A program made the position numbers and the translations under genes. The notes beneath the pieces were generated by a model. The model did no database searches and was not told the DNA's origin. It worked only from the letters and a program-made list of their open reading frames with translations. This document shows, in pieces, positions 16,837 to 41,036 of a DNA stretch of 51,679 bases (positions are counted from its first letter, which is position 1; each line of letters starts with the position of its first letter). Location of the stretch: the sequence record SRR31147125_10124. One strand, 5' to 3'.

Positions 16837-18230
16837 TCATTTAGCTACTGGCGGAACAATTGCAGACAAATCTGCCACATAAACTTTCCGGGTGCCATTT
16901 TCAACGCCATTAATCGCTACATGTGTGTAGGTGCGTGTGTCCCAGGCCGGATGCAGGTCTACACGCATTTCATTTGCCTCGGAAGGATCATTTTCAAATA
17001 AGGGAGTAGCCGCCTTCATCCGGACCAGTGTTTCCTTTTTGTCTGTTTCGAGATCGATCAACCACAATGGTGCAGTATCATCACCAAAAGCAACAGGTTC
17101 ATTGGGATATGCATCGGTCATCAGAAATTTCTCACTTGGATGTAAACTGTTATGACCACGGTTTGCTGGTTCTGGTGTAATACTTTTACGGTCAGTACCA
17201 TCATACCTTGCTCCCACAAACCTTAATCCCTTGCCATCTACAAACAAATTCATCATTACATGCTCTCCATCCGGCTGCCAATTGGGATGGTTACCGCCTT
17301 TATCAGCCCATTCAGAAGAAGGAATAGCCAGACATATATCATCACCATCTCGTGTCATAGTCATTAACATGGGTTTTCTTTTTTATCATTCTCGGGCATA
17401 TAACGCAGGACCAGCATAATGCGATCGCTTTGGGCGTTCCACTTTGTATGAAAACCATAAAAATCACCTTTGCCATATCGGTTTACATCAATTTTAGGTA
17501 TTGCTTCATCTACAATTCGTTTATAAGATGCAATCATTCGGGTTTCGCCGGTTATTGTATTTGTAACAAATACACCGTCATCATCAACCAGACCTTTATT
17601 TACAGGTACGTATTTATCAGGAACAATGACTCCATAACCCGCTTGAGTAGCACCAATACGACGCAGACAAGTGCTTACAGCCCATTTCCCATCAGGAGAA
17701 ACCATGTAAATGGTGCCATCCAGTTTCATTTTTTCTCCGGTCAGAGGATTCATCTTTACACCGTATGGCATCCATGTACTGGTATCCATGTCGTTATAAA
17801 ACAATTGAGTATCATCAGCACCCCATTGTACTTGTGCCCCTAATTGTGTATCCCAACCTCTTGTTTCAGCAATAATCTTTTGTTCTCCGGTAATCAAATC
17901 GACCAAAACAATCTCTGCTATCTCTCCAGGATCAGGGGTACGATCTTCACGAGATAGTCGGGTTAATCCCAGGTACCGTCCGGATGGGCTGAACGGCGAG
18001 GAGCTATGAAAACGATGGATACAACGATCCAAATCTGGTGTAACACACCAGATGGGGACCTTGGGATCAAATTTTGTATATTTGGGGAAAACCTTATTGA
18101 AATTATATTTCAAACTTGAGTTATTATTTTCTACAGCACACCCCAAAGTACTTGCTATACCGATGCCACTAACACCCACTATTGAGTGTCTTATAAAATC
18201 CCGTCTCGTCCACTCTAATTGTTTTTCCAT
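16837..18230 (-). pseudogene. Tat-exported TolB-like/oligogalacturonate-lyase-like beta-propeller protein, split by a frameshift (ORFs 17364-18281 and 16837-17370)
   Basis: TRRDFIR; SPFSPSGRYL, RGWDTQLGAQVQW, HTKWN, NHPNW, MTDAYP, RVDLHPAW. One extra A in the run at 17379-17384 gives NDKKRKPMLMTM in a single frame. Confidence 0.8.
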
Positions 18231-18419
18231 AGTAATTTCCTTTATTGATTGACTGCTACATGATTTTCTAATGGATGTCAAGGTGTTGAACTCCTCACCC
18301 TGTTACAGCCCATTATATTGAATATTTTCATGAAAACAAATTTTTAACAATTCTCTTCATTTAATATACTCCAGTGTTCTCTTCACCAAATAAATAACTA
18401 TATCTTATTTTTTAAAGCA

Positions 18420-22436: not shown

Positions 22437-22468
22437 CTACCGGGTGAACATTTCATTCCACCCGGTAG
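22437..22468 (-). terminator. GC-rich stem-loop after the uptake module (terminator or mRNA-stabilising hairpin)
   Basis: Perfect 10-bp stem CTACCGGGTG/CACCCGGTAG just downstream of the 22514 stop; no U-tract on the minus strand. Confidence 0.6.
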
Positions 22469-22513: not shown

Positions 22514-24016
22514 CTATTTTAATAATGTCATTTTCCTTGTTCTCGATTGGCCATCAGCCGTGATTTGGTAGAAATAAATTCCAGATGCAATGTTTGAGGC
22601 ATTCCATGATACACTATGAGTGCCGGCCTGTATCTGACCATCAACAAGAGTTTCAACCAGTCTACCGGTGATATCGAACACGCTTATATTCACATTGGAT
22701 CTGTTTTCAATCGAATAATCAATAGTGGTGACCGGGTTGAATGGATTGGGATAGTTTTGTGATAATACAAAATCAACTGGAGCTGAGATATCTTTTCCGG
22801 ATACAAATGTCGCATTTGTTGCCCAGCGAAGGTCACCTAGAGCGCCGCCATCATGGGCCTTACCATAGGCGGGAGAACCAGGCAGAAGCGTAAAGTCGCC
22901 ATTTGCAGCATCTGCGAACATAGGATCAAAATTATAGATCGTTGCGACATCTACGGTACCGGGAGCACCAAAAGTATACCTTCCTGCGGCTATTTCAAAT
23001 CCATTTTCGAGTATAAACGGCCACGTCTCCACTGTGTCTGGTATATCCATAGCTGGTGCAACATTAAAAGCACAGATATTACTGAGGCTTGAACTTGCTT
23101 TTTCAATAGAAATGATTTTGTTGTCTTTTTTGATTGTGTCCGGGCTCGCAACAATTAAATTTCTTACTATTGTATTTTCACAATCATCGACCAGCATAAC
23201 CTGCGGGTAAGAATTATAAACGGTTACATTTTCTACGGTTATTGCGGCATCAACCGTGGTTGAATCTTTATCCCCTTTAACTGTAATTAATCCCTGCACC
23301 TTTGGACCATTGCCGCAATGATTAAACGTACAATTCCTTACAATAAGAGATTCGACTGCCCTGATCACTCCATCCCTGCCACTTGCTTTTTGCACCAGAA
23401 TTGCTTCGTCAGCATTATTTTCAAACGTGCAATTTTCAAATCGTACAGTACCGGCCGTTCCAAAATCACGGACTCTGAAGAAAGATCCTTTATTATCAGA
23501 TTCTGGAGAAGCCTTCTCATAGCAATTGCTAAAATCACAATCTTCTACAATAACATTGGGAAGAACATTCCGGTCAGCCTCATCATTTCTTACAACTGCT
23601 ATAAAATCGTCATTATCAAAGGGATTCAACGATCCGTCTGCAAACCTGCCATCAAACTTGATGCCCTGTAACTTCAAGGTGATACTTTCCGTAAGGTGGC
23701 TTTCATCAATTAACAAAAAGTTATCTAACGTATCACCGGGAATAATCATCGGCTTTTCTGCCAATCCTTCTTTTGCGCGGATGGTCAGATCATACATTAC
23801 AGAATCAGCGGCATTTAAGGTGTACACGCCACCATCTGTGACTAATTCAATGACAGGGTCCACAACAGCGCCAGTGTTTACATACAATAATGCTGCTGTC
23901 AGGTTAGCACCTTCTCCCGCACCTGCTTCAACGGGCAATACTGTTTGTGAATAGCCAATACCTGCGATGCACAATACAGCCGACATCGTAACGAACGTCA
24001 TTTTAAAGACCTTCAT
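22514..24016 (-). CDS. Secreted beta-helix protein with DUF5123-like end and T9SS-type C-terminal sorting domain; probable surface glycan-binding protein
   Basis: Signal peptide; parallel beta-helix repeats (VIVEDCDF, VRFENCTF, LIVRNCTF); DPMFADAANGDFTL...GDLRW; LSQNYPNPFNP tail; SD GGAGG. Confidence 0.75.
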   Translation of the reverse strand: MKVFKMTFVTMSAVLCIAGIGYSQTVLPVEAGAGEGANLTAALLYVNTGAVVDPVIELVTDGGVYTLNAADSVMYDLTIRAKEGLAEKPMIIPGDTLDNFLLIDESHLTESITLKLQGIKFDGRFADGSLNPFDNDDFIAVVRNDEADRNVLPNVIVEDCDFSNCYEKASPESDNKGSFFRVRDFGTAGTVRFENCTFENNADEAILVQKASGRDGVIRAVESLIVRNCTFNHCGNGPKVQGLITVKGDKDSTTVDAAITVENVTVYNSYPQVMLVDDCENTIVRNLIVASPDTIKKDNKIISIEKASSSLSNICAFNVAPAMDIPDTVETWPFILENGFEIAAGRYTFGAPGTVDVATIYNFDPMFADAANGDFTLLPGSPAYGKAHDGGALGDLRWATNATFVSGKDISAPVDFVLSQNYPNPFNPVTTIDYSIENRSNVNISVFDITGRLVETLVDGQIQAGTHSVSWNASNIASGIYFYQITADGQSRTRKMTLLK

Positions 24017-24109
24017 TTAGTCCTCCATTAATTTAAATGAATGTAATTAAGTTACAGCTAAAATTATTTGTTTCTTTGTACCTCCTTTCCGGTTCGAACC
24101 ATTCATGCT

Positions 24110-25612
24110 TTAAAAAGCCACGGTATAGCCGACCAGCATTCTATCCAGCGTTTCCATAACATAATTGGTATTACCGAAATACGAATCATAATATTTCATT
24201 CGCCGGGTTTCGTACGCCACGTCGAACCAGCCAAACAGTGCTTTCACACTCAAACCCAGAGTGATGCTTTCCGCATAAGGGCCACGGTCTTTGATAGCCG
24301 CGCCATCCGGTACAAACACCTCCGGCAGATTACGGTAACCACCAAGTAACGACAACCAATCCCAGGGTTTATATTCCATCCCGATTCCTATCATCAACTG
24401 ATCGGCCCAGCCTTTGTGTGTAGTATCGTTATTAGCAAATGTGAATTCAGACTGACTGTAGTTTGTATTCTGCAGATCAAACGCGATCCGGAATTGTTTG
24501 ACTGGCGAAGAACTGATGCCGATGGTATAAGACAGGGGAACGGTCATTTCATCTTCGCCGGAAGTGTTTTCTGTATTTGAGTTTGTTTGATTGGTAGTAA
24601 TCGTCGTGTAGTCCCATTCCCGTTTATATGTGTATGGAGGAGTAATTTTTAATCCCACGCTTAGATGTTCAAATTCAAAAATGGTCCCGATGTTAAATGA
24701 TAGTGCACTGAATTTTGAATTACCAGTGGTTGAAGTATGTAATGTGTCATAAGAAAATCGAAAAATATTTGCATCAACCAGGTCGAAATAGCCGACTCGT
24801 CCGAGCCCCTGTAAATCAGATGTTTCGCCGGCGCTTTTTGTAAAGCCTAATCCTAATTTAACGTGCTTATTCAATTCTACGGCAACGGCAGATGTCATAT
24901 TCCAGATCGTTCCGGTCCGTTCCCGTTCATAATCTGACCAATAGACCCGCATACTGTCATCCGGACTTGTAACCCGGTCTACGATTCCTTCATAAGGAGT
25001 ATAACCAAGGTGTGGCACTAAGTGCGTATGATTCCGGTCATAATCCAGCACCTGATTTCTTTTGTTATAAGCTGCTGATGCAACGAGTGATTTCCCTAAC
25101 ATGTTAAATGGTACGGCAACAGCAAAATTATCAAACAGGGATTCCTTTTTTTCTTTCTGCCAGTCTGCTGCTTTTTCACTATAATAGTCTTCCCCAAGCA
25201 GAGGATCATTCACTGTATAATTAGTATCATTTTTGAACACCTCATAATCGTACATGCCATTATTGACAGGATCCGGCACATAAAGTCCATCTAAGATAAA
25301 TGATACAACAGCAAACTGACGAAACGGGCGATAGACCTGATTTTCACGCCACATTTTGTTATAGGAATTCGCCTGAAACGAAATTTGTATTTGGTCTGTA
25401 CCGACTAATCCTGCCGGATTCCAGAAAATGGACTGCACACCGCCAGAGATTGCCGTATAGGCGCCACCCATCGCCAGGGCTTTAACGCCATTCCCATCCG
25501 GCACACCCAAACCCTGGAACGCCAGGTTGTCGCCACGATGTTGAGCATACCCCACTGAAAAGCATGAGATTATAATCATGTGAATTAAAATATTTCTGGT
25601 CACTTTTATCAT
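24110..25612 (-). CDS. FadL/PorV-superfamily outer-membrane beta-barrel
   Basis: Signal peptide; GVKALAMGGAYTA...IFWNPAGL N-terminal motif; alternating beta-strands; terminal Phe. Confidence 0.8.
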   Translation of the reverse strand: MIKVTRNILIHMIIISCFSVGYAQHRGDNLAFQGLGVPDGNGVKALAMGGAYTAISGGVQSIFWNPAGLVGTDQIQISFQANSYNKMWRENQVYRPFRQFAVVSFILDGLYVPDPVNNGMYDYEVFKNDTNYTVNDPLLGEDYYSEKAADWQKEKKESLFDNFAVAVPFNMLGKSLVASAAYNKRNQVLDYDRNHTHLVPHLGYTPYEGIVDRVTSPDDSMRVYWSDYERERTGTIWNMTSAVAVELNKHVKLGLGFTKSAGETSDLQGLGRVGYFDLVDANIFRFSYDTLHTSTTGNSKFSALSFNIGTIFEFEHLSVGLKITPPYTYKREWDYTTITTNQTNSNTENTSGEDEMTVPLSYTIGISSSPVKQFRIAFDLQNTNYSQSEFTFANNDTTHKGWADQLMIGIGMEYKPWDWLSLLGGYRNLPEVFVPDGAAIKDRGPYAESITLGLSVKALFGWFDVAYETRRMKYYDSYFGNTNYVMETLDRMLVGYTVAF

Positions 25613-25680
25613 GATAGGACTCCTTAATTAACCACGAATTTAGTTCATTCCGTTTAACAATTATGTGTGAAATCCGAGGT

Positions 25681-26679
25681 TCATTTTTTCATAAAACCAA
25701 TTGAAAACCGGTGCACAGCGTCTAAAGACTCTCCAAAATCACTATATGAATAGTCAACTCGAGTATTGAAAATACTGATTCCAAAACCGAGAGCTAATCC
25801 TTCTTCATCATAATTCAATTTGTAACCGCCACGCAGATATAACATGTCACGCAGAGAGTATTCAACACCCATATGATATTGCTGGCCATAATCCCTGGCT
25901 TCTACCATATCATAAGCAAGCAGCAGTTTATGATCAACTGCAGTCATGAAGAACGAATTTTCCGGGGATATCAGATAACCGGAAACGCCAATTGTTAATG
26001 TCTGCGGCAAAGGATAACTTTCACCATCTTCCAGAAACTTAATTTCCGGCCCGAAATGTCTAATTGTGGAAGCCAGTTCAAGCGACCGAAAACCGGTACG
26101 ATAGGTAAATCCGCCATCAAAAATTAGTGCGGATGCAGCATATGCCACCAAGTCTTCTCGCGCATATTTTGCAGTAACGCCAAACGCAAACTTATCTGTC
26201 AAATCACGAGCGAAAGAGACGCCAAACACCTGAGCAGCAGGACTGACAGTTCGTCCTGTCAGACCGGGATTATAAACGCCCGTGGCATCATCACGGAATA
26301 GGTGGTCTACCCGTGTTTCCTGAATATCACCAATATTTATTATAAGCCCCATCAGCCCAATAGTACCGATACCAGGAATGGCGTACGCAAATGAAAACGA
26401 TTGGTGGTTCATATCAAGCAACCAATCCAGATATGACAGCGAAACATCGAATCCTGTAACTTTAGCCAGTGCTGCAGGATTCCAGAAAATTGCTTCTGAA
26501 TTGTTGACAACCGCTGTAAACGCTTCCCCCATTGCTGTGGAGCGGGCATCAGGCATGACCTTTAAAAACTGGAACGAGGTTGTCCCAACCTTGTGGATGT
26601 CCTCGCCCTGGCCAAAGCCATTCTTACTCACTGCCATTATCATGATAATTAAAATGAATATGTTAAAATGTATTTTCAT
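25681..26679 (-). CDS. PorV/PorQ-family (UPF0164) outer-membrane protein
   Basis: KVGTTSFQFLK..DARSTAMGEAFTA...IFWNPAAL; YPLPQTLTIG; GVEY...LRGGY; VDYSYSDFG..L..VHRFSIG. Confidence 0.9.
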   Translation of the reverse strand: MKIHFNIFILIIMIMAVSKNGFGQGEDIHKVGTTSFQFLKVMPDARSTAMGEAFTAVVNNSEAIFWNPAALAKVTGFDVSLSYLDWLLDMNHQSFSFAYAIPGIGTIGLMGLIINIGDIQETRVDHLFRDDATGVYNPGLTGRTVSPAAQVFGVSFARDLTDKFAFGVTAKYAREDLVAYAASALIFDGGFTYRTGFRSLELASTIRHFGPEIKFLEDGESYPLPQTLTIGVSGYLISPENSFFMTAVDHKLLLAYDMVEARDYGQQYHMGVEYSLRDMLYLRGGYKLNYDEEGLALGFGISIFNTRVDYSYSDFGESLDAVHRFSIGFMKK

Positions 26680-26765
26680 GGTATGTTACCTCTTCACTAA
26701 ATGGCACCACGAATCTCACTCACGACACGAATACTTGCGTGGTGAGAATTCGCCGTTTGGGTGAT

Positions 26766-29078
26766 TTACTTAATCACAATCAATTTTCCTGTAGTACGAT
26801 CTCCTTTAGGAGTTTCCACAACATACACATAAACACCAGACGCGATATCCTGACGGTTACGGGACACCTGAAACCAGGCAGTGGAAAATTTATCCGCATC
26901 ATGATCAATTTGTTCTACTAACTGCCCGGCATAAGAATATATCTTGATTGTACATTTCGCAGGTAATCCATAAAATCCAATCGCATCTTCCATGCCGATG
27001 CCTTCAAGTCCGGATTTACTGATAAATGGATTGGGAACGGCATGAACATCGGTAAGCTTATCCGTGGCAGCAACATTTTTAGTATGGAATGTGATATTCG
27101 ATTTCCCGCTTTCACGCCCATGATCGTCGACCGAAGTTACAGCATAGTATTTTGAATCACCCAGTCTGAAATCTTCATCATCATCCGTATAAAAATATAA
27201 TCCTTCACTATTCACTTCACCCGAATTAAATGATTTCAATAGAGTCCATGGTCCCATTCCGGAATTACTTCGGTATAAATTATAGCCAACAATTGTCCCG
27301 GTAAGACGCGGGTGCGCAAACTCTTCAGCCGTATGGTTCCAGATAATTTCAATTGTCGCCAATGCAGTATTTCTCACAATTGTTACCGGAGCCGGAATTG
27401 CCACAGGTATTTTGTATTTATCAGGATTTTCTGAAGGAACAGGATTTGTTTCCGGCCACATCATGCCATCTGCCGGCCCTTGCTTTAATGTGTCAAATTC
27501 AATGGTCTTGCCTAAATATGCCTCAAAGGCTTTATGGGCAACCTGGTTCACGGTAATGACTTCCGAATTGATATAATCGGGATATCCGTAATCATCAAGA
27601 TAATTTTCAGTCATTGTCTCACCATCGATAACAACTTTTTTATTCCATGAAGGCGCAGCACTGTACGGTTCTTTGGTCATAAATTTTTTATTCTCACTTG
27701 CTCCATAGCCCACAACTTCTGCAACAGTAAATTCAATTTTATCACCTGATTCAAGTGTATAGGGGCCAAAACCGGTTACACAGTTACATCCATTATATGC
27801 TGATGTATTGGTGTTACGCGATCTTCCTTTCCAGGTGCTTCCGTCAGGCGGAATAAATCCTTTTTTATCCGGCGTTCCATATTGATTGATAAAATCATCA
27901 GTCCATACACCTCCCCATCTTTCCCGAATCGTTGTACACCTGTCCATTATTTTTGAAGACCGTGCATTACCCGTTTGCGTACCCAAATTCCATGGTTGCA
28001 GCACATGCTTATTTTCATCCAGTTCAAAGATTTGATTATTTAAATCTTTGGCTAAATAATTGACTTTTTGAGATTCATTCATATCAGGATTATCAGGATC
28101 TACGATTGCCAGATGGTTCGTGTCATATTTCAGAATACAATAACCGGGAGCTTGCGGACTGAGCAGCCCACCGCCATTCAATCCTGTTTCAGAAAACAAT
28201 GTAAACAAGTCTTCATTCGGATCCGGATGAGCAGCTAAATACCCAGTAGCTTCATCCGTGGCGCCGGTTCGTAATGCTAATGGAAAATACAACCAATAAT
28301 CATAATCATAAAAACTCATATGATCCGCCCGGTTAAAGGCGTCATAATTCCAGGAACCATAATTTCGCTGTAATCCTAACATGGAAGGCGCAAAAGTATA
28401 TTGAAAATGTATTAACACATCGGTCAGTGTTGTATCCCGTTCTATTGTTTCCGGACGCCCGTCAGTATCTCCGGTATATTCAAACTCATATTCATAAATG
28501 ATCATATCATCAAAGTCTGGATAACTCCAGGATCGTGATGTTCGTGTTACTGTGATTCCCACCGGAGTTGCCCACTTTGCAATAATTATTTCTTCTGCTT
28601 CATCGGGATTGTAATCGGGGTTCAGCACACCCTGACCATCAGCTCCGGCAATGATAGGGAAATTTTCAATTTCTTCAATCGATAGTGGGAAACTCCAAAT
28701 GCCCAGTGGAAGTTCGGGAGTATTTGTTCCCGTACCACCACACAGTGCAATCAGTCGGTTTTCCCATCCAGGCCGGCCTTTAACATTTGCAGAGATATAA
28801 ACACCACCACCAATCATATTGTGCTGGCCAGGGTATTCAATACCATCAATCACCGTTCGTGACCTGGATGGCCATTCCATTAACGGTACGTCCGTTTGTT
28901 CCCCTGCCTGGCCGTACTGGTAGGGCCTGGAGATAGTACCGGTATTGAAAACTGTTTGATGTAACATTCCTCTGTCATGGATTCGGTACTCTCTCAATTG
29001 TGGAAAAGCTATATTTGAAAATATGAGGAGGAATGTCACCAAATATAATAATATTGCAAAATTATTAAGATTTTTCAT
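26766..29078 (-). CDS. Large secreted protein of unknown function with FN3-like domain and variant C-terminal sorting domain (TBDR partner)
   Basis: Signal peptide; IHDRGMLHQTVFNTG, SFYDYD, TGFGPYTL..GD.I; FN3-like GYNLYRS...YYAVTSVD...ES; tail VHAVPNPF...IGFYGLPAKCTIKIYSYAGQLV...IASGVYVY...GKLIVIK. Confidence 0.75.
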   Translation of the reverse strand: MKNLNNFAILLYLVTFLLIFSNIAFPQLREYRIHDRGMLHQTVFNTGTISRPYQYGQAGEQTDVPLMEWPSRSRTVIDGIEYPGQHNMIGGGVYISANVKGRPGWENRLIALCGGTGTNTPELPLGIWSFPLSIEEIENFPIIAGADGQGVLNPDYNPDEAEEIIIAKWATPVGITVTRTSRSWSYPDFDDMIIYEYEFEYTGDTDGRPETIERDTTLTDVLIHFQYTFAPSMLGLQRNYGSWNYDAFNRADHMSFYDYDYWLYFPLALRTGATDEATGYLAAHPDPNEDLFTLFSETGLNGGGLLSPQAPGYCILKYDTNHLAIVDPDNPDMNESQKVNYLAKDLNNQIFELDENKHVLQPWNLGTQTGNARSSKIMDRCTTIRERWGGVWTDDFINQYGTPDKKGFIPPDGSTWKGRSRNTNTSAYNGCNCVTGFGPYTLESGDKIEFTVAEVVGYGASENKKFMTKEPYSAAPSWNKKVVIDGETMTENYLDDYGYPDYINSEVITVNQVAHKAFEAYLGKTIEFDTLKQGPADGMMWPETNPVPSENPDKYKIPVAIPAPVTIVRNTALATIEIIWNHTAEEFAHPRLTGTIVGYNLYRSNSGMGPWTLLKSFNSGEVNSEGLYFYTDDDEDFRLGDSKYYAVTSVDDHGRESGKSNITFHTKNVAATDKLTDVHAVPNPFISKSGLEGIGMEDAIGFYGLPAKCTIKIYSYAGQLVEQIDHDADKFSTAWFQVSRNRQDIASGVYVYVVETPKGDRTTGKLIVIK

Positions 29079-29125
29079 CTATAAAATACCTCCGGTATTA
29101 TGATTGTCTATTGCCAAAGAGAAAA

Positions 29126-32014
29126 TTAGAATTCAAAGGAAACACCAAATCGAAATGACCTGGGCATATTAGCCATTAAATAGGCTTGCAGGTTTGTTGT
29201 GTATGGTGCGAATTCTGTTTCAGTCATAACACGTTTTTCCTCCACCGGGACATCAGCACCGTCTTCCATATATCGTCCGCGGTACAGATTTTCAAGTTCT
29301 TCAGAGAAGGTTCTGCTATAGTGCCATATCTTCTGATTTAATACATTGTAGACTTCAACATAGGTTGTGACTGTTGTACGGCCTTTAATAAATCCTTTTT
29401 CCAGCCTGAGAGTCGTATGATGCTCATTGGGAGTGCGTTGATTGTACCGCAATCCCTGACCGGACATGTCCCATGTAAACGGACGTCCGGAAAGAAAACG
29501 GTACGTTCCACTGAGGTTTATATTGGCTAATGGGTGAGTATTTAATATTTCAAATCCGGCCTGTGATGATGTTTGAAATCCCAAATTCGCTACAAACTTG
29601 TGCAACCGGTTGTAATCAAGATAGATATCTTTGGGATCCCGCAGATTGTCTTTTTCGGGCTGACCCTCATAATGAGCCACTTGATCAGCAGCGCCTGTGG
29701 GGCTACTTGACTTGCCAGTAGCAGACTCCCAATTATAACGCATATTGCCTCGAATGAAGCCATAATTTTTATCCAGGCTGATGTGAAAGCCCTTCACATT
29801 AGCGTATTCACGGTTATCATACGAATCATATGTGAATCCGTCTTTATCAACATATTGTGCATGCTGAATTAAATTAGTAACGTTTTTATAATAAGCACTT
29901 AAATCAAGATAGAGCCCAAAAGGAAGTGACCTGACCACGCCCATATCATAGGAAATCGTTTTTTCTGGTTTCAATTCCGCATTCCCCATTTGGTCGAAAT
30001 CCGGAATTGCTTCTCTTTTAAAACGGCTTACAAAAATATACTGAAACGGCGGCCGTTGAGTAAAGACGCCATAATTTAAGTGAAGCACCGTTTTGTCCGA
30101 GACCGGAAATGAAAAACCGATTCGAGGTTGGAAAACTGTCTCCAATTTAGTTGATTTTTTAGCCGCTTTCCTGGCATCATAAAATCCACCAGCATCGGGA
30201 TCAGTCGGATCAAAATCCTGATTTTTATAAGGTGAGAATCGGTTGGTAAAATAGTCTGTGTTGAAATTATAGAAATCATACCGCAATCCGATATTCGCGA
30301 TAAAACCTTCGTATTCCATTTTATCCTGCACGTATACAGCACCCTCAAACGGGAACACTTTATAATTTTGCCAACGCTCGTTTCTCACATTTGTCATGGA
30401 ATTTTTTCTATCCATACGCATGTCATAGTAGCTAAACTGAAAACCGGATTTTACGAGATTCCGGTGATCAATCTGAGATGTGATATTACCATTGATATTC
30501 AGCGTTCGTGTTGTATTTTCTCCTACCGTTGTTGCGAGTCTACCCCCTGAATGCCCGGATGGTGATTTGGAAAATCGCCAGTTTGAAGTTGCATTGTAAT
30601 CATCCGCATATTGTCCCGGTTCTAACAGTTCCACACGCTCATTTCCGACAGTCCACAATTGATTTACTTTTATGTCCATGAATGTCGCCGGATTAAACAC
30701 GTGATTCCAGGTGACGCCAAATTGTTGTATTGTTTCTGTTACTTTTTGAACATTCAGCACTGTTTCAAACCACTGGTAAAAATTGCTTGTAATATCATTT
30801 TCAAAATCTGTATTATAATTGTAGTTAAATTTAATTTTATTATTTTGATTTAAGCGGTAAACGAGATTGCTCATCACCTGAATATCTCTGTCGCGGAATG
30901 GCGTGGGAATAACAGGTTGATTATTTCTAAAACGCGTGGCTATAAACAAGCTGGTATTTTCTGAAATCGGGCCACCTGTTGAAAATTCAGTTCGGAAATC
31001 CGGAGAAGCGTAATCAAGCCCGGTCTGCCTTACCAATTGCAGCCAAAGGGCCCTGATCAGTGAGGCAGTGCGTAATGTGTCTTCCCGGGTCGGGGCCGGT
31101 GGTAGCGGCCAGCCAAATTCCTGTTTGGGGACATAATCATCAAAGCCGATCGTGGAAAAGTTATAGAGAGGAGATCCATTCGTAGGGTCAACACCATCGA
31201 CCCATTCTTCAGGATTGAATAATGTCTCATAAAATTGATTGATTTCTTTTGAATACGCGCCATCTCCCCAGGTTTTATAGCGAGGATTGGTAGCGGAAAA
31301 ATTCAATTTGGTTTTCCATTGCTTACCGCCCTCTTTCATTACCATATTAATGACACCCGATTGCACATTTCCATATTCAGCGCTAAAACCGCTGGTATAC
31401 ACTTCAACCTGCTCCAATCCAATAGTTATCGGCTCAAATGTCCTTGAACCAGTAAGTGGATTCATAATTTTGGCGCCACCAATGAGGTAAATTGCCTCCC
31501 CGCTCCGGCCACCTCGGAAATGACCGCCATCTACATCGGCTTGAAGATTAATAACATCACCGACATCAGTAATGCCTGGCAGGCTTTCTACCTGACCGAT
31601 ATCATATGTCATTTTCGTCGCAGTTATATCCGGTTCCACACGATCCGGGTGATATGCAGTGACAACCACCTCTTCACCAGCGAGCGTCTCCATGCTTAAC
31701 TTATAATCTATACGTGTTGTTTTATCGACTAACACCTGAACATTTGTCATTACTTCATTTTTATATCCTATAACACCGGCTCGTAATTCATACGTTCCCG
31801 GGGGGATATTAATGATAAAATATTCGCCGTTCAAATTTGTCGCAGCACCTAACGTCGTACCCATAAGCTGAATATTGGCACCAGGCAGAGGTTCACCGGT
31901 TTCCTCATCGATAACCTTACCCGCTATTTTACCGGTAACCCCTGCGAAGGATGAAACGGTGATGAACAGCGGCAGTAATAAAAGCACAAACCATACAGAC
32001 TCTGTTTTATACAT
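29126..32014 (-). CDS. TonB-dependent receptor with N-terminal carboxypeptidase-regulatory-like domain
   Basis: TGKIAGKVID.ETGEPLPGANI, plug HFRGGRSGE and SGFSAEYG..QSGVIN, YVQDKME, GLRYD, QPRIGFSFP, GNAELKPEKT, PRSFRFGVSFEF end; SD GGAGG. Confidence 0.95.
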   Translation of the reverse strand: MYKTESVWFVLLLLPLFITVSSFAGVTGKIAGKVIDEETGEPLPGANIQLMGTTLGAATNLNGEYFIINIPPGTYELRAGVIGYKNEVMTNVQVLVDKTTRIDYKLSMETLAGEEVVVTAYHPDRVEPDITATKMTYDIGQVESLPGITDVGDVINLQADVDGGHFRGGRSGEAIYLIGGAKIMNPLTGSRTFEPITIGLEQVEVYTSGFSAEYGNVQSGVINMVMKEGGKQWKTKLNFSATNPRYKTWGDGAYSKEINQFYETLFNPEEWVDGVDPTNGSPLYNFSTIGFDDYVPKQEFGWPLPPAPTREDTLRTASLIRALWLQLVRQTGLDYASPDFRTEFSTGGPISENTSLFIATRFRNNQPVIPTPFRDRDIQVMSNLVYRLNQNNKIKFNYNYNTDFENDITSNFYQWFETVLNVQKVTETIQQFGVTWNHVFNPATFMDIKVNQLWTVGNERVELLEPGQYADDYNATSNWRFSKSPSGHSGGRLATTVGENTTRTLNINGNITSQIDHRNLVKSGFQFSYYDMRMDRKNSMTNVRNERWQNYKVFPFEGAVYVQDKMEYEGFIANIGLRYDFYNFNTDYFTNRFSPYKNQDFDPTDPDAGGFYDARKAAKKSTKLETVFQPRIGFSFPVSDKTVLHLNYGVFTQRPPFQYIFVSRFKREAIPDFDQMGNAELKPEKTISYDMGVVRSLPFGLYLDLSAYYKNVTNLIQHAQYVDKDGFTYDSYDNREYANVKGFHISLDKNYGFIRGNMRYNWESATGKSSSPTGAADQVAHYEGQPEKDNLRDPKDIYLDYNRLHKFVANLGFQTSSQAGFEILNTHPLANINLSGTYRFLSGRPFTWDMSGQGLRYNQRTPNEHHTTLRLEKGFIKGRTTVTTYVEVYNVLNQKIWHYSRTFSEELENLYRGRYMEDGADVPVEEKRVMTETEFAPYTTNLQAYLMANMPRSFRFGVSFEF

Positions 32015-32399
32015 TCAAGACCTCCATATTAATGAAGAATAAGTATCACTTGGGACATTATTTCGATAGTATCGTTTTATTTTTTGCTATTAAGATCTGG
32101 ATTGGTGCGATCGATGTTCGTTGAAAAGAAAATCGGGCAGCACAAAGGGTCATCGGCCCGGTTGGGAAAGTGAAAGCGTTGTAGTTTTGAAAAAAAATCA
32201 ATTTGCCTCGCAGTTATTCATAATTTTGAACCGGATTTTCAATCTTGCCCGGTAATTAAAGCAATACACTGGAGAAATTTAGAGTTTGAAAAAGAGAATT
32301 CAATTTTAATAGCAGGTTGGATCAGTGGCATTTTTTAACAAATTATTGTTTTATGATCTTAAAAAATTTGTTTAATTTTTATTACACAATTATATTCAC

Positions 32400-32660
32400 T
32401 TTATCAACGTAATAACGGTTCTTTATCGGTTAACTTTTATTTTCGCAACTCATCCTCAAGATATTTAACTTGCAAAACAGCAGGTAATAACTGCAATTTG
32501 TTCAAAAACGGGTTTTTCAAAGACGAGAACTTGTATTTTTTCATATAATTAAAAGCCTTAAAAATAAAACTTGAAAAATCGCTTGTTGATGTCGATAAAA
32601 ACAGGTTTGCATTGAATTCTTTTTGATGCCATAAGGTTAATAACACGTTATTACGGGTAA
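32400..32660. promoter_or_regulatory. Divergent promoter region with candidate operator sites
   Basis: The 10-mer CGTTATTACG occurs at 32646-32655 (+) and 32408-32417 (-); near-palindrome TAATAAC-AC-GTTATTA at 32638-32653. Confidence 0.45.
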
Positions 32661-32904
32661 ATCATTACATCTTAAAGGTTAGAAAGACTAGTTATTCTCG
32701 GTTCAACAATTTTATTATGTCATATCACATACTCATTCTTTTTAATGGTAATAGTTTTGGAGTTTAGACTCTTTTTGAATCGTATTGTTTCTACTAAAAT
32801 TATTTTACCAAATCCCCGGATAAATCTTAATTTTTGGGTTGCATTTCAATCTTAAAAATGACTATATTTTTTATAGCACAAATTTCACGAAAATATCAAA
32901 TAAT

Positions 32905-34119
32905 ATGTATAATACCAAAGTAGCCTTATATCTTGAAAAGATTTTACAAAGCAAGGAATTTGTAAAGTCCCAAAAGCATCAAAAGTTGTTAGAATATCTC
33001 GTCAAGGCTTCCCTTGAAGGAGAAGTACCCAAAGACTCTACAATCGCCTATGACGTTTTTGATGCGGATCCAAAAGAGGATGCGGATTCCACCACCAAAG
33101 TGCGGGTCTACGTCCATAACCTTCGCAAGAAACTGGCCTGCTACTACATCTCTGAGGGAAAAGATGATGAGATCCGGTTTGAAATCCCAAAGGGTCATTA
33201 TAAGGTCGTTTTCAACGACAAACAAAAACCTCAAAAATTAATAAAACAAAACAGAATTTTATATGTGGCTTTGGCAATTCTTCTGATTAGCATCGCCTTG
33301 AATATTTTTCTGTTTCAAACCGGCCAATCAGGAATTACTCTTCATATTCCAATTGATAATAATAATCCTGTTTGGCAAGATTACCTGAATGATGATTTGC
33401 CCACGCTAATTGTTATGGGGGATTATTTTTTGTATGTCGATACCTATTTAACGGATAGAAATCGTTATGTCCGTGATTATCAGATCAATTGCCCGCAAGA
33501 TTTTGAGTATTTTTTATCCGAAAACGAATCCTATAAAGACTATGTTCTTATGACCGAGCATACGTTGTTGGGCAAACTGGCACCCTGGTGTCTGTATGAA
33601 TTGACATCGGTATTGACCCCTTTCAATTCACAGGTAGAGTTAAAGCTTTCAACACAAATTCAATGGAATGACCTGAAAAAATATAATGTGTTGTTTGTGG
33701 GAGCGTTTAAAACACTGGGAATTCTGGAAGAGCTGGTAAAGGAGTTGCATTTTACCTATCAAATTCATCCGAATAGATTATATTATCATCCGGAAGATGC
33801 AGACACTTCATATTCCTATCACGCTATCTCATCTTTGCCTGCCGATATACCTTATGAAACCGATTATGCTGTGATCGCCAAATTTCCCGGCCCCAATCAT
33901 AACGTCATTACTATTTTTGCATCCACACGGGATATTGGTTGTTTGGCTGCAGTTGATTTTCTGACCATGCCTCAATATTTGGATTCTTTTGTAGACAATC
34001 ATATTAAAAAGGCTTCAAGGGCAAAATATTTTGAAGCCGTTTTTGAGGTAAAGGGTTATGAGCGAACGGTGGTCAGCATCGATCTTTTACATTTTAATAA
34101 AATCGACTCTCAACCCTGA
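32905..34119 (+). CDS. Membrane-spanning one-component transcriptional regulator (N-terminal winged-HTH-like domain, TM helix, periplasmic domain)
   Basis: LEKILQSKEF..S.....LLEYLV...TIAYDVF...VRVYVHNLRKKL..YY..EG...IPKGHY; TM ILYVALAILLISIALNIFLF; soluble C-terminal domain (ORF track start 32839). Confidence 0.78.
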   Translation: MYNTKVALYLEKILQSKEFVKSQKHQKLLEYLVKASLEGEVPKDSTIAYDVFDADPKEDADSTTKVRVYVHNLRKKLACYYISEGKDDEIRFEIPKGHYKVVFNDKQKPQKLIKQNRILYVALAILLISIALNIFLFQTGQSGITLHIPIDNNNPVWQDYLNDDLPTLIVMGDYFLYVDTYLTDRNRYVRDYQINCPQDFEYFLSENESYKDYVLMTEHTLLGKLAPWCLYELTSVLTPFNSQVELKLSTQIQWNDLKKYNVLFVGAFKTLGILEELVKELHFTYQIHPNRLYYHPEDADTSYSYHAISSLPADIPYETDYAVIAKFPGPNHNVITIFASTRDIGCLAAVDFLTMPQYLDSFVDNHIKKASRAKYFEAVFEVKGYERTVVSIDLLHFNKIDSQP

Positions 34120-35615: not shown

Positions 35616-37103
35616 TTACCACTTGGAAATTGTTTGAAGCTTCTTTTCAAGCTTTTTCCTCACAGATGTAAATTCAGTCTTTTCCACAATATTTTCTTTC
35701 TCTGTCCATCCCCCATCCATATGATAAAGCTCGGGTGGTTCTGTTTCGTTCAAAATGAACTTCCATTGCCGGCTTCTGACCATCGCAGTTTTGTACCTGG
35801 GATTTCCATTTTGATTTAATACACGGCTATGTAAGGGCGTTTCATCTTTATCTTCCAAATCTAAAGACGGATCGGGCATATTTGGATCCACATCATCATA
35901 TCCTGCGGAAGCAAAGACGGTAAAATCCTCCTCTTCAATTTTTTCTCCCCTTAAAAATGGTACAAGCGAACGACCTTCAGCATTTTCCTGTATCTTTCCG
36001 CCGGTCAGAGCTGCCAGCGTAGGAAAAATATCAACACTCTGGGCTAGGTTCTGTACTTTAAATCCTTTGCCTATATGTCCGGGAGCATACCATATCATGG
36101 GTACATGTAAAAGTGTATCATATAAAAACATACCTTTCCTGACCATCCGATAATCACCCATAAAATCGCCATGATCGGAGGTAAACACAATAATTGTATT
36201 TTCCAGGATACCCCTGGCCTCCAATGCTTTCATTAGCCGACCTACCTGCTCATCAACGCCCCATTCAATAGCGGCGTAATAGTAACGCATGGTTTCTATT
36301 AAATCTGAATCTTTCAAATTGGGATATCGCATCGCACAGGCAAAAACATCCAATCTCGAACTCAGATTTGTTGGCGGGATAAAAGTCGGTAATTTCATAT
36401 CAGTCGAATTATATTTACTGGTAAACTCGGAAGGGGCCATATAAGGAGGATGTGGATCGAAATAGCTTACATGGAGAAAAAATGGTTCATCAGAACGTGC
36501 CTGGTTTATAAAATTAATTGCTTCATCCGTATTTTTTCGTGGGTAACAATACTCTGAGGGCCACAATGTGTCACCATGCCAGTGAGGGGGAACAAACCGA
36601 TTATATTTTCTGAATGGCTCACGGGCGCGGAGACTCGATGTATCAAAATAAGAGAATTCTGATTTTATGAATGTATGATTTTTACCAATCCAGCCAAGTC
36701 GATAATTGCATTGTTTGAAATATTCCGCCAAAGTCCCATCAAAAGAAAGCTTGGGGAGATTTTTGGGTTGGTTACATAAATGGCCATGTTGATGCGGAAA
36801 CTTTCCGGAAAACATGGACATACGTGATGGAACACAAACCGGATTGTTAGAAAAGCAATAATCAAATAAAACGCCTCCAGCAGCCAATTTATCTAAATTT
36901 GGTGTTTTTGCATTGTGATTTCCCAGACAACCCAGGGCATCTCCCCGCATTTGATCACAGATAATGAAAACAACATTGGGGGGCGTTTTTGCAGTTTTCC
37001 CCAATATGACATTTGGAAAAGTTGAGGCAAGCATCCCGCCAACAGCAGCACTGCCAGTTGTCTTTAAAAAGTTGCGTCGATTTTGATCTTGTTGAGTTTC
37101 CAT
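35616..37103 (-). CDS. Sulfatase (choline-sulfatase-like), Tat-exported
   Basis: NRRNFLK; PNVVFIICDQMR; CVPSRMSMFSG; SYFDPHPPY; TSDHGDFMG...KG. Confidence 0.9.
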   Translation of the reverse strand: METQQDQNRRNFLKTTGSAAVGGMLASTFPNVILGKTAKTPPNVVFIICDQMRGDALGCLGNHNAKTPNLDKLAAGGVLFDYCFSNNPVCVPSRMSMFSGKFPHQHGHLCNQPKNLPKLSFDGTLAEYFKQCNYRLGWIGKNHTFIKSEFSYFDTSSLRAREPFRKYNRFVPPHWHGDTLWPSEYCYPRKNTDEAINFINQARSDEPFFLHVSYFDPHPPYMAPSEFTSKYNSTDMKLPTFIPPTNLSSRLDVFACAMRYPNLKDSDLIETMRYYYAAIEWGVDEQVGRLMKALEARGILENTIIVFTSDHGDFMGDYRMVRKGMFLYDTLLHVPMIWYAPGHIGKGFKVQNLAQSVDIFPTLAALTGGKIQENAEGRSLVPFLRGEKIEEEDFTVFASAGYDDVDPNMPDPSLDLEDKDETPLHSRVLNQNGNPRYKTAMVRSRQWKFILNETEPPELYHMDGGWTEKENIVEKTEFTSVRKKLEKKLQTISKW

Positions 37104-37119
37104 ATTTTTACCTGATATT

Positions 37120-37854
37120 TCATTTTGCTATTTCCCACACTTTAAAATTTCTATACCGAAAATGTGTCCACTTCATTTGCCGAAAGCCAATTTTGCCGTC
37201 CTTGTGTACCGGACCATATTTTTTTCCGTCATCAATCCAGTCGATTATCCTTTGATCATCGACAAACATAAAAATATAGGGGCCTTGCTTTATCAGTTTT
37301 AACTTGTGAATAGTTTTCGATCTGGTTGGAATACCTTCCTCACCTGTTTGAACCAGAAAAAAACCTTTATTCTTACGTAAATGAGAATCACCCCGATTTG
37401 GATTCTTTGGATTATTGGCATAATATGAAATATGATAACAATTCATTTTCCCTTTCGTGTACTGGCTGAATGTGCCATCCCGTTTGGGGAGTCCTGGATG
37501 AAAGATATCCTCGCCATTTACACCTTTGGCAGCAAAAAATAGAATAACAAGTCCGGCATTCGGTTCCATGTTTTGTGCTTCCCACTCTGCGATGAAACTA
37601 TCCGGAAAATCCCGGGGACACCAGAAGACGTGATGCCATTTTTCCTCAGGTGAATACATGTGCATCCAACCGTCTTTAAACTGTAATTCTCCAGGCCCTT
37701 CCATTTTCCAATCCTGCACATTTTCCCGGGTTGCCAGACTATTTTCGTAAAAAAGTTTTCCTTTGAGAATAGGACCTTTTTTATCAGCGAAGCAGAGTAA
37801 GGGAATCAAAATTATGAAAATCATTCCCTTTACCTGTTTTTCTATCCTTTTCAT
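37120..37854 (-). CDS. YesU/DUF1961-family protein (concanavalin-A-like fold)
   Basis: WKMEGPG, VFWCPRDFP, ILFFAAKG..GEDIF, YHISYY, LRKNKGF, GKIGFRQM. Confidence 0.82.
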   Translation of the reverse strand: MKRIEKQVKGMIFIILIPLLCFADKKGPILKGKLFYENSLATRENVQDWKMEGPGELQFKDGWMHMYSPEEKWHHVFWCPRDFPDSFIAEWEAQNMEPNAGLVILFFAAKGVNGEDIFHPGLPKRDGTFSQYTKGKMNCYHISYYANNPKNPNRGDSHLRKNKGFFLVQTGEEGIPTRSKTIHKLKLIKQGPYIFMFVDDQRIIDWIDDGKKYGPVHKDGKIGFRQMKWTHFRYRNFKVWEIAK

Positions 37855-37925
37855 TTATCGATCCTTCAAAACAGCTGTTATATAAATCATATTACTATAA
37901 TTTTTCACACAAGCATAAATCTATT

Positions 37926-39308
37926 TTACTTTATCGGCCTTTCATCCAAAAGAAAAGCCGTTGCTTTTCCATTTGTCTTTTCCCAACCATAGAAAAGGAT
38001 TATATCATCGATAATTTCTCCCACACCACGACTAACAAACTTTATATTTTGATACTTGTAGTTTTTATTGAGAGTTAGATTTTTGGTCAAATTCCAGTTT
38101 TCTCCCCAATCTTTTGATTCCCATAATTCGATTCTGTTACCCGAACCATAAGAATCCATATTTTCCTCAGAGCTGTTATTATTTTCTCCCACTACCAGAT
38201 AGGCTTTAAAATTGCCATTTACACTTTTATCTAACAGACAGCTGTTCCAGGTATGATTCGTTGGTAGAATGGATTTCCTAGACCAAATTCCGTTTTTATT
38301 CTTTAAAAAGTAAAACATACACTTTTGAGGTGATTCCTCTGACAATGACAGAAGGAAAAATGGTTCATTTTTTTCATCAATATAGATAAAAGGTGGTACT
38401 GCCAAGATACGTTCATTTGTATCCCAGATTAGGCATTCCTCATCGGCAATCTTTTTTCTAACGGGTGTTTCAAGTAATTTCCCTTCATAATTCATCACAT
38501 TCCCGGCAACCAGATCAATTTTTAAGTAATAAAGATTGTATCTTCGGGTTTGTTCAGTCAATGTGCTATTGTAGCGGGAATTCATCATTTTATCTTCGAC
38601 TTTCCAACTAAAGGCAACATGAAGTGTTTTTCCATCTTTACTTAGACAAGTAGAATGATAAGATCCCGCGTGCGGGGCCATTAATTCGTCATGCGGTTCT
38701 TTATTGAGATCTACAACCGGATTATTGGGAGTTTTCCACGTTTCCCCATTATCAGCAGATATTCGATATGTCCAATAACCGAGATGTCCACTATGATGGA
38801 AATACACGAGGGTTGAATTATCATATATTTGAAAAACCTGAGGATAAGAAATACTTTCATGAATCGCTGAACTGTTTTCCCACTCTTTTATGTCTTTAGG
38901 ATTTTTGGAAACCAGATGAATTCCGGCTGTACGGTGACAACCGAATAAAACTTGCAAATGTCCACCATTCTTATCTGCCCAAATCACGGGTGAGAAATGA
39001 TGATCCCTTTTTATTTTCTGTTTCGTTGCGTAATTAGATGGGAAAGGTAATGGCAAAGGCTTTGAGAAAAGACGACTCGCAAGACCATAAGTTGTTATAT
39101 AAGGAAAGCCATTTTCCCCTCTCCAAACGATATATACACGGTCTTTATACTCCAACGCCTGCGGATTCATTCTCAAATCATATAACATTTTTAAAGTACC
39201 ATTTGTCGCAAATGGAACAGGTTGCGCAAAACAAAAATCAGCAGATAAGACAGGCCATAAAATGATGGCTATTAAAAAACGAAATTTTATATTTTTATAT
39301 TTTACCAA
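37926..39308 (-). CDS. BNR-4 repeat beta-propeller protein
   Basis: Signal peptide; DHHFSP...FGCH; SYPQ; Asp-boxes SADNGETW and SKDWGENW; RYNLYY. Confidence 0.75.
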   Translation of the reverse strand: MVKYKNIKFRFLIAIILWPVLSADFCFAQPVPFATNGTLKMLYDLRMNPQALEYKDRVYIVWRGENGFPYITTYGLASRLFSKPLPLPFPSNYATKQKIKRDHHFSPVIWADKNGGHLQVLFGCHRTAGIHLVSKNPKDIKEWENSSAIHESISYPQVFQIYDNSTLVYFHHSGHLGYWTYRISADNGETWKTPNNPVVDLNKEPHDELMAPHAGSYHSTCLSKDGKTLHVAFSWKVEDKMMNSRYNSTLTEQTRRYNLYYLKIDLVAGNVMNYEGKLLETPVRKKIADEECLIWDTNERILAVPPFIYIDEKNEPFFLLSLSEESPQKCMFYFLKNKNGIWSRKSILPTNHTWNSCLLDKSVNGNFKAYLVVGENNNSSEENMDSYGSGNRIELWESKDWGENWNLTKNLTLNKNYKYQNIKFVSRGVGEIIDDIILFYGWEKTNGKATAFLLDERPIK

Positions 39309-39332
39309 TTTATAAAACTCTCAACCTGTTTA

Positions 39333-40652: not shown

Positions 40653-40721
40653 TATATTCTCCTTCCTTTCACAATAATTTATTTGGTTAGAATAGAATTA
40701 GCGTTTCGCATTTCTGTTTAA

Positions 40722-40871: not shown

Positions 40872-41036
40872 TACTTTAAACATGAGTAATGTAATGCATT
40901 AAAAAAATGGCTCCACATAATCCAAAAATAATCATAATAATCCACTTTATTTTTATTGTCATATTTTAAACTTTCATTCGTTATTTTTCTCAAAATAAAC
41001 AATTTGATCTCTCACTAAAACTGTAAATATTATCTC

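Follow-up and report, generated by a model that had tools for sequence, protein, structure and literature searches.

A TonB-dependent receptor module with a sorting-tailed partner and its own PorV/PorQ-family barrel: a candidate SusD-independent route of glycan uptake

Introduction

How might glycans be captured at the surface of a bacterium by a TonB-dependent receptor (TBDR) that has no SusD beside it? The SusC/SusD pair is the textbook machinery of glycan capture in Bacteroidota, where it both defines and predicts polysaccharide utilization loci. The question is raised by a five-gene module on the minus strand, at positions 22514-32014 of a 51,679-nucleotide stretch of DNA from sequence record SRR31147125_10124 (the whole stretch is hereafter called the window), in which a TBDR gene lies among genes for carbohydrate-active enzymes (CAZymes) and is followed by genes for a 770-amino-acid protein and a PorV/PorQ-family barrel. 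An initial annotation, made from the letters alone, had proposed an alternative design of utilisome here, in which lid and binding proteins are exported by a route resembling type IX secretion (the T9SS) and held next to the transporter by locus-specific PorV-type anchors. The best explanation of the data that we present below is that the five genes form an operon-like unit in an organism with a T9SS but with little or no SusD. We assign a probability of roughly 0.6 to the reading that this unit serves SusD-independent, TonB-dependent glycan uptake, with a surface partner that reaches the outside through the T9SS and is kept there by a PorV/PorQ-type barrel of its own.

The ORF map bears out the five co-oriented open reading frames (ORFs) that had been annotated, which are separated by gaps of 47, 86, 68, and 93 bp:

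29126-32014, minus strand: gene 1, TBDR, 962 amino acids
26766-29078, minus strand: gene 2, partner without a Pfam family, 770 amino acids
25681-26679, minus strand: gene 3, PorV/PorQ-family barrel, 332 amino acids
24110-25612, minus strand: gene 4, FadL/OMPP1-like barrel, 500 amino acids
22514-24016, minus strand: gene 5, beta-helix and DUF5123 protein with a type A tail, 500 amino acids

Results

The receptor's partner does not resemble SusD

The partner encoded by gene 2 has no Pfam family over cut-off, and neither SusD_RagB nor SusD-like models were present among its Pfam matches at E <= 0.01. Its translated signal peptide lacks a cysteine and hence a lipobox. An AlphaFold2 model, built on an alignment of 40 sequences (alignment A1; mean column identity, 61%), reached a predicted local distance difference test score (pLDDT) of 83.3 and a predicted template-modeling score (pTM) of 0.81 and consists mainly of beta strands, different from the helical (TPR-like) fold of SusD. 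Given the missing SusD match, the all-beta model, and the missing lipobox cysteine, sequence and model indicate that the partner is not SusD/RagB, in agreement with the initial annotation. The model and structural alignments with VIA-align divide the protein into three parts, all on the minus strand:

27405-29006, minus strand (residues ~25-558): N-domain, a beta super-sandwich (model and VIA-align)
27072-27404, minus strand (residues ~559-669): fibronectin type III (FN3) domain (VIA-align, Z ~11)
26769-27050, minus strand (residues ~677-770): divergent sorting tail, or C-terminal domain (CTD) (model and VIA-align)

A Foldseek search of the whole protein against the PDB returned only FN3 pairs, the PorZ tail (5m11, at rank 2), and long alignments of low template-modeling score. 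The fold of the N-domain was taken from a wide VIA-align search of 48,161 chains, in which dextran dextrinase (9ju0; Z 17.6, root mean square deviation 3.6, 266 aligned residues), a GH94 phosphorylase (4zle; Z 15.7), and a glucoamylase (1lf6; Z 14.7) were matched through the super-sandwich domains that accompany the catalytic domains of these enzymes; weaker matches lie in lyases and hydrolases (3a0o, Z 11.1; 9irq, Z 10.6). No catalytic domain was recognized in the partner itself, either by Pfam or in its secondary structure, which is devoid of helical catalytic barrels; the protein displayed neither a SusD fold nor the recognizable features of a plain enzyme.

The sorting tail that had been annotated on the partner is present but divergent. 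It is seen in the model and matches the PorZ tail (5m11) with Z 10.3 in VIA-align, and its best NCBIfam match is the PorZ C terminus (E 7.5e-7). Its score narrowly misses the type A model TIGR04183 (22.8 bits versus a cut-off of 23) and lies well below the type B model CHU_C (PF13585; 18.6 versus 27 bits), and PF18962 was not among its matches. An alignment of this tail with the type A tail of gene 5 contains insertions and gives 27% identity.

A confident interface is predicted between the partner's tail and the adjacent barrel

Gene 3, which directly follows the partner gene, encodes a PorV-family barrel, as annotated: it scores 201.8 bits on the PorV/PorQ family model NF033709 (cut-off 90) over profile positions 1-324 of 326, and its profile matches the solved PorV structure 6h3i_F (E 6.1e-17). 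On the equivalog models it stays under the cut-off for either named member, at 101 versus 220 bits for PorQ (NF033711) and 84.9 versus 250 bits for PorV (NF033710), PorQ being the better match of the two. A separate PorV_fam gene with a higher score (243-320 bits) is present in each of the genomes of five relatives.

We predicted the complex between residues 25-332 of gene 3 and residues 560-770 of the partner, which span its FN3 domain and tail, in three runs and with three controls. The interface score, ipSAE, was 0.91 in all three runs, compared to 0.00 for the best of the three controls, with contacts that agreed to at least 91% between the runs and a partner pLDDT of at least 79. For calibration, 51 of 78 solved complexes and 2 of 108 mismatched pairs attain the mark of the complex tool. 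On the partner side, the predicted interface is made by CTD residues 669-770 alone, while on the barrel it involves a conserved N-terminal segment (residues 29-41) together with several loops. The interface residues of gene 3 are more conserved than the rest of the protein (0.73 versus 0.59, p = 2e-4); in the partner tail, which is uniformly conserved, no such difference between interface and remainder was found. The interface between the partner's CTD and a PorV-type barrel that the initial annotation had anticipated is hence confidently predicted. As for its proposal of two locus-specific PorV-type anchors, the support extends to the barrel of gene 3 and not to the second one.

The gene order is conserved and the genes are co-inherited

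A word-indexed protein search with the partner found 606 relatives at E <= 0.001. The 120 that were listed are all at least 50% identical to it across almost their entire length, and none carries a precomputed Pfam domain. Those that have a name are hypothetical or "T9SS sorting domain-containing" proteins, and they come from KSB1, Calditrichota, Neomarinimicrobiota, and Melioribacteraceae. When 1.84 billion representatives were searched exhaustively with the N-domain alone, 148 clusters (at 50% identity) were obtained at E <= 0.001, of which 31 remained at E <= 1e-30. Look-alikes of this domain in the atlas belong to unnamed clusters, in which the known phyla are most often Fidelibacterota, Zixiibacteriota, and Gemmatimonadota.

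Scanning a single genome for every species revealed 266 stretches that encode a relative of the partner, from which we kept 80 loci, labeled as Ignavibacteriota (28), Calditrichota (11), Fidelibacterota (6), Bacteroidota (14), unassigned (17), and other (4). We aligned the window's five proteins to these loci with tblastn and counted gene neighbors by script, over the loci with room for the gene in question. The receptor gene lay directly upstream of the partner in 79/79 loci and a PorV-like gene directly downstream of it in 78/79, so that the order of receptor, partner, and PorV-like gene for which a synteny survey had been suggested is almost strictly kept. A FadL-like gene followed the PorV-like gene in 73/73 loci, and a relative of gene 5 lay directly downstream of the FadL-like gene, within 500 bp, in 45/59. 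Given this frequency beside the nearly absolute synteny of the other genes, the first four genes make up a fixed core and the fifth is a frequent but exchangeable accessory. Relatives of PL6 lyases flank 28-29 of the 80 loci. The single locus that lacks the downstream PorV-like gene, L072, was considered as an exception to the synteny and discounted, for scaffold gaps of 100 N lie on both sides of its partner gene.

The four core genes also share their history. Trees were built from the 59 of the 80 loci that hold all four genes at 85% coverage or more, with the other 21 left out. Identities to the window correlate between the four genes (Spearman 0.70-0.85), and their FastTree trees have 28-38 of 57 splits in common in pairwise comparisons, far above the mean of 0.2-0.3 and the maximum of 3 that were obtained upon shuffling the labels. 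The phylogenetic congruence that was expected for the receptor, partner, and PorV genes is thus evident, and it includes the FadL-like gene. Mantel correlations between the four genes ranged from 0.57 to 0.88 and were reached by 0/500 permutations. Where a genome or contig holds paralogous cassettes (L001 and L039; L002/L006 and L053; L069 and L078), these group by type of cassette, in that each keeps the same nearest neighbor from other genomes in all four trees; their second and third neighbors vary, and L076 is less consistent. Each cassette hence duplicates and moves as a block.

After the influence of the two remaining genes was regressed out, partial Mantel correlations were still high for the receptor and the partner (r = 0.81) and for the PorV-like and FadL-like genes (0.71), each reached by 0/500 permutations. 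A weak residual was left for the partner and the FadL-like gene (0.26, reached by 2/500), and none for the receptor and the PorV-like gene (0.13) or the receptor and the FadL-like gene (-0.09). This mirror-tree type of signal fits two coupled pairs, receptor-partner and PorV-like-FadL-like, but does not prove that they touch, since the same correlation could arise from rate shifts that the genes share.

We also observed cassettes in metagenome-assembled genomes labeled Gammaproteobacteria (L017), Lentisphaeria (L069/L078), and Deferribacteres (L015). L017 and L078 are mutual nearest neighbors in all four gene trees. These odd labels reflect either mislabeled bins or horizontal transfer of the whole cassette.

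A receptor, a tailed protein, and a PorV-family gene recur as a triad

Five large assemblies (G001-G005; four are single-chromosome records and one, G004, has scaffold gaps) were surveyed for triads of this type. The A1 profile gave 88 matches, of which we kept the 60 that include the tail (E <= ~2e-10) and dropped 11 non-tail pieces and 17 weaker ones; 96 of the 150 listed receptor matches were used, mainly N-terminal pieces, and 53 further matches lay outside the list. For 50 of these 60 tailed ORFs, a PorV-family gene came next on the same strand, at a distance of 87-276 bp, and in 49 of these 50 pairs a receptor was present upstream at the expected distance. Each genome has 5-16 such triads; among the 81 PorV-family genes over cut-off in the five genomes, 50 belong to one. 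As a control, only 2 of the 38 listed generic sorting tails in G001 were followed by a PorV-family gene, and one of these two belongs to a PorU-like paralogue. Twelve fetched triads were tightly packed and encode a receptor of 838-1053, a partner of 626-1218, and a barrel of 325-365 amino acids; none of the 10 partners scanned has a Pfam family over cut-off.

Variants of the triad occur as well, in the order receptor, barrel, partner (G005:C15:259780-267463) or partner, receptor, barrel (G001:C1:4386514-4394163). At G001:C1:405480-410812 and G001:C1:1950579-1951826, PorV-family genes also lie directly after the PorU-like paralogue (a 1684-amino-acid ORF) and after a tailed giant protein of 5607 amino acids, so that private barrels are not limited to the partners of TonB receptors.

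The T9SS and SusD content was taken from ten relatives' genomes. SprA is over cut-off in 9/10 cassette-bearing genomes, the miss being a 1.8-Mb assembly, and the PorU sortase is over cut-off in all 5 genomes tested. SusD_RagB gave four matches, three of them over cut-off, in 3/10 genomes, and none in the window's five closest relatives.

The receptor, the second barrel, and the fifth protein

Gene 1 encodes a signal peptide, a carboxypeptidase-regulatory-like N-terminal domain (CarbopepD_reg_2, PF13715; 72.9 bits, residues 30-118), and a plug and barrel (TonB_dep_Rec_b-barrel, PF00593; 63 bits); the stretch EEVVVTAY at residues 113-120 is putatively TonB-box-like. Its AlphaFold2 model (pLDDT 79.2) is a standard plug-and-barrel TonB transporter. 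On these matches and the model, the receptor has the domains of a SusC-type protein, that is, the N-terminal carboxypeptidase-regulatory-like domain, the plug, and a 22-strand barrel. The SusC pairing was not found, as the adjacent gene has no SusD Pfam match and an all-beta model, and the SusC/RagA model TIGR04056 gave 59.3 bits against a cut-off of 368.25, through residues 29-123 alone. Among solved structures, sequence likeness was detected for the N-terminal domain alone. Foldseek searches with the gene 1 model were led by generic TonB transporters (FusA, 4zgv, E 3.9e-25; Fiu; YddB); a preference for a SusC-like fold was ruled out, since SusC chains appeared at ranks 18, 22, 29, and 42 with scores near those of siderophore receptors. 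The receptor also matches PF25183 with 40.1 bits, a model typical of Oar-like barrels.

Gene 4 was correctly recognized as a second FadL/PorV-like barrel. It exceeds the gathering score of Toluene_X/FadL (PF03349; 36.6 versus 29.7 bits), over profile positions 140-337 of 421 only, and has a PorV-like N-terminal motif, with a PorV_fam match at residues 44-85; it scores 38.7 bits on BamG (NF053685) against a cut-off of 250. Full-length relatives number 1-2 per genome in the five assemblies, so that the FadL-like gene belongs to the alginate-type subfamily and was not found in the other triads. Gene 5 matches Beta_helix (PF13229; 28.9 bits), Por_Secre_tail (PF18962; 50.6 bits), and, as annotated, DUF5123 (PF17161; 41.1 versus 35.1 bits), and could bind glycans at the surface or else be lyase-like. 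Its tail is an ordinary type A tail, as in the neighboring lyases, and none of these genes is followed by a barrel gene; gene 5 might nevertheless be held by a barrel. Neither gene 4 nor gene 5 has a sequence match among solved structures.

The surrounding locus

The module is bordered by two further features:

22437-22468, minus strand: hairpin past gene 5, 12 pairs with an 8-nt loop (sequence and fold)
32015-32838, no strand: AT-rich intergenic region between the TBDR gene and a divergent regulator-like gene (GC content and ORF map)

The strong hairpin that was said to close the module indeed starts 46 nt beyond the stop of gene 5, with a 12-bp stem and an intergenic fold z of -2.57. As a terminator it did not hold up: a U-tract is absent and the terminator scan reported nothing after gene 5, so it is a hairpin and not a demonstrated terminator. 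At the other end, the GC content drops to 0.343 over 32001-34000, compared to ~0.42 in the operon, and region 32015-32838 is the presumed operon promoter region; promoter-like matches within it are at consensus level only and no more frequent than in shuffled sequence. Beyond it, a divergent 426-amino-acid ORF (32839-34119, plus strand) weakly matches Trans_reg_C (19.7 versus 26.2 bits) and is a possible regulator of the operon.

Downstream of the module, the same strand encodes a pectate-lyase-like protein, two lyases of family PL6 (chondroitinase B-type) that bear type A tails, four sulfatases, one GH2, a DUF4962/heparinase II/III-type lyase, and two PF05426 alginate lyases. More sulfatase, GH2, BNR, GH28, and GH92 genes lie upstream on this strand at 35616-51679, separated from the module by the divergent regulator-like gene. 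The module was described as heading the CAZyme cluster, which is not strictly so in view of these upstream genes; it sits within the cluster. The lyases and sulfatases in the flanks suggest that the locus targets uronate-rich glycans, probably sulfated or alginate-like. No susD-like gene was found by Pfam in the module or among the scanned flanking ORFs, the short ORFs 16837-17370 and 17364-18281 being without a family, and the locus, with CAZymes but no susD-like gene among the scanned ORFs, thus falls outside the strict definition of a polysaccharide utilization locus (a susC/susD-like pair beside CAZymes).

Several minus-strand genes in the flanks are split. A GH92 gene (47925-50395) appears to extend over two overlapping ORFs, with the N-domain and the first 45 positions of the catalytic-domain profile in 49334-50395 and catalytic positions 50-463 in 47925-49364, which is a frameshift or assembly error. 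A GH28 gene (44336-45807) occupies two ORFs, 45268-45807 (N-terminal part) and 44336-45094 (profile positions 153-319), with a 173-bp gap, and a sulfatase gene (50352-51679) two overlapping ones, 51227-51679 (profile positions 36-121) and 50352-51230 (161-300). Between the PL6 genes, at 16837-18281 (minus strand), the two overlapping short ORFs (177 and 305 amino acids) have no Pfam family and no relatives in the 80 loci.

Discussion

How, then, might the unit capture glycans? We propose that the TBDR would act as the importer across the outer membrane and that the 770-amino-acid partner would be exported by Sec and then by the T9SS. Its divergent CTD would escape cleavage and stay on the private PorV/PorQ-type barrel encoded directly downstream, and this hold would keep the super-sandwich and the FN3 domain next to the receptor on the outside of the cell. 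There, the partner would bind alginate-type oligosaccharides released by T9SS-secreted PL6 and other lyases and hand them to the receptor, perhaps capping it as a lid, and would thereby do the job that SusD and surface glycan-binding lipoproteins do in Bacteroidia. The FadL-like barrel, which appears to co-evolve with the PorV-like one, would probably be part of the same membrane platform, and the fifth protein may be a substrate-specific accessory. The proposal of an alternative utilisome thus stands as far as the synteny, the co-inheritance, the predicted tail-barrel interface, and the absence of a SusD fold carry it; the retention of the tail, a barrel that acts as a permanent anchor and not as a private secretion shuttle, the contact of receptor and partner that a lid would require, the binding of a glycan and its identity, and the role of the FadL-like barrel are what we infer from them.

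Several observations weigh against this proposal. The gene 3 profile matches PorV structures that have been solved (6h3i and six 8gl* entries), so the tail-barrel score may reflect likeness to known binding of cargo by PorV, and a complex prediction cannot tell which PorV paralogue binds the tail. The partner and the PorV-like gene show no residual co-variation (partial Mantel r = 0.02). The partner's tail shares homology with ordinary type A tails, whose normal fate is cleavage, and the T9SS of the window's own organism is inferred from its relatives. An enzymatic role of the partner is conceivable too, with super-sandwich domains also being found inside lyases and hydrolases (3a0o, 9irq).

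The homology of the tail leads directly to the best-surviving alternative, in which the PorV-like barrel serves only as a private secretion shuttle or chaperone, while the tail is cut by PorU and the partner becomes attached to lipopolysaccharide or is released, with no stable anchor and no fixed complex with the receptor. PorU is present in all 5 genomes tested, the housekeeping PorV has been described as a shuttle in the part of a review available to us (PMC10202324), and the complex prediction does not separate transient from stable binding. We nevertheless consider this alternative unlikely. It is hard to see why one private barrel per tailed partner, in 5-16 strictly adjacent and co-inherited pairs per genome, should be kept for a step that the housekeeping PorV could serve, when the ordinary type A cargo of the same locus does without a private barrel and only 2 of the 38 generic tails listed for G001 come with such a gene. 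Furthermore, the partner's tail scores under the cut-offs of both the type A and the type B model.

A second alternative, that the partner is a surface lyase or hydrolase of an undescribed family that acts on uronate-rich glycans and is neither binder nor lid, with the receptor importing the products, strikes us as a shade less probable again. Its super-sandwich matches do include domains of alginate and heparin lyases, glycoside hydrolases, and phosphorylases, and the family is unusually conserved, since members from different phyla are more than 50% identical and many of their Asp, Glu, His, Tyr, and Arg residues never vary. However, in GH15, GH65, and GH94 enzymes the sandwich by itself is not known to be the catalytic module, and the partner has no Pfam family and no helical catalytic barrel of the kind that accompanies the sandwich in the matched enzymes, in a locus that already contains at least five lyase genes. 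The weakest alternative, that the module does not import glycans at all, the receptor-like barrel exporting or assembling the partner (as proposed for Oar-type receptors) or taking up another nutrient and the CAZyme link being incidental, would accommodate a receptor that lies outside the SusC family, matches PF25183, and has protein- and siderophore-type transporters as its best structural matches, but is very improbable given the common lyase neighbors (PL6 relatives and the gene 5 beta-helix relative at the frequencies above), the presence of T9SS parts able to export the partner, and the cassette's position inside a studied alginate locus, as drawn in a figure of PMC9530828.

We therefore return to the anchored, T9SS-delivered partner as the preferred reading. 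The unit combines two kinds of machinery that are already known into a new variant, and it is open to testing in an organism that grows in culture. More tentatively, at somewhat short of even odds, Ignavibacteria, Calditrichota, KSB1, Fidelibacterota, and Rhodothermus-type lineages may share a second general architecture of TonB-dependent capture, in which each receptor has a T9SS-delivered partner whose CTD, of a distinct and retained class, locks it to a PorV/PorQ-type barrel of its own. Such an architecture would amount to SusC/SusD without the lipid, with 5-16 copies per genome, to which the alginate subtype would add the FadL-like barrel to form a two-barrel platform. The cassette-bearing lineages, which abound in sediments, soils, and hot springs, are degraders of polysaccharides whose genomes contain SusD genes in small numbers or not at all, and their uptake systems are hence missed by SusD-based pipelines. 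If our reading is true, a tailed partner with a private barrel would be a searchable marker of glycan loci in these phyla, type IX secretion would have a second use in assembling nutrient importers, and a new class of retained sorting domains would be defined.

Comparison with known systems

With the SusC/SusD (RagA/RagB) utilisomes, the module shares a TBDR with a carboxypeptidase-regulatory-like domain that comes first in a glycan cluster, with a secreted surface partner encoded directly after it and more surface proteins beyond, as well as the occurrence of many paralogous sets per genome. It differs in that the receptor fails the SusC model (59 versus 368 bits), the partner is an all-beta super-sandwich with an FN3 domain and a sorting tail whereas SusD is a helical lipoprotein, the partner would be held by a barrel via its T9SS tail and not by a lipid anchor, and the unit includes two extra barrels.

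Type B tails come with cognate PorP/SprF-like barrels, for example in SprB-SprF of Flavobacterium johnsoniae. As in the module, the gene for the tailed cargo directly precedes the gene for its own PorV-like barrel, but the window's tail scores only 18.6 of the required 27 bits on CHU_C, no PorP/SprF model is among the matches of the barrel, and the cargo is linked to a TonB receptor and not to gliding adhesins. Such type B pairs are mentioned in the review passages available to us (PMC10202324).

In BtuB-BtuG, XusA-XusB, and BamG-BamH, an outer-membrane barrel likewise works with a surface-exposed partner; these partners are lipoproteins, unlike the one described here, and gene 4 is far under the BamG cut-off (38.7 versus 250 bits). 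For a FadL-family barrel as the platform of a surface protein, BamG-BamH provides a precedent, to judge from the portion of PMC12578637 at hand.

The nearest match in gene order is found in the alginate locus of Rhodothermus marinus MAT378, where a figure legend (PMC9530828) gives tonB (2805 nt), a protein with a T9SS type A sorting domain (2181 nt), a member of the PorV/PorQ family (1056 nt), a hypothetical protein (1398 nt), and lastly a PL6 alginate lyase. Order and sizes match those of the window, the likeness being one of legend order and sizes. In the available part of that paper the lyases are characterized, unlike the four outer-membrane genes, which are given no role there. Our literature search, which extended to papers without their supplements and in part to excerpts, found no paper that interprets the cassette, drawn only in the figure of PMC9530828. 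With the cassette in an alginate locus of studied enzymes, the cultured R. marinus would be directly amenable to experiment, as far as this legend goes.

The anchoring logic appears closest to that of PorZ-PorQ and PorU-PorV in the attachment complex of Porphyromonas gingivalis. There, according to the accessible part of the review, the PorZ tail is kept and bound to PorQ, and cognate PorV-like barrels are proposed to protect tails from cleavage (PMC10202324). The window's barrel lies below the equivalog cut-offs of both PorQ and PorV, and, unlike PorZ-PorQ, the pair is cargo-specific, lies beside a nutrient receptor, occurs 5-16 times per genome, and includes no component of the secretion system itself. 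In both arrangements, a surface protein would keep its CTD and be held by a PorV/PorQ-family barrel, and the resemblance extends to the individual parts: the partner's tail is most like that of PorZ, in NCBIfam as well as in structure (5m11), and the window's barrel favors the PorQ model.

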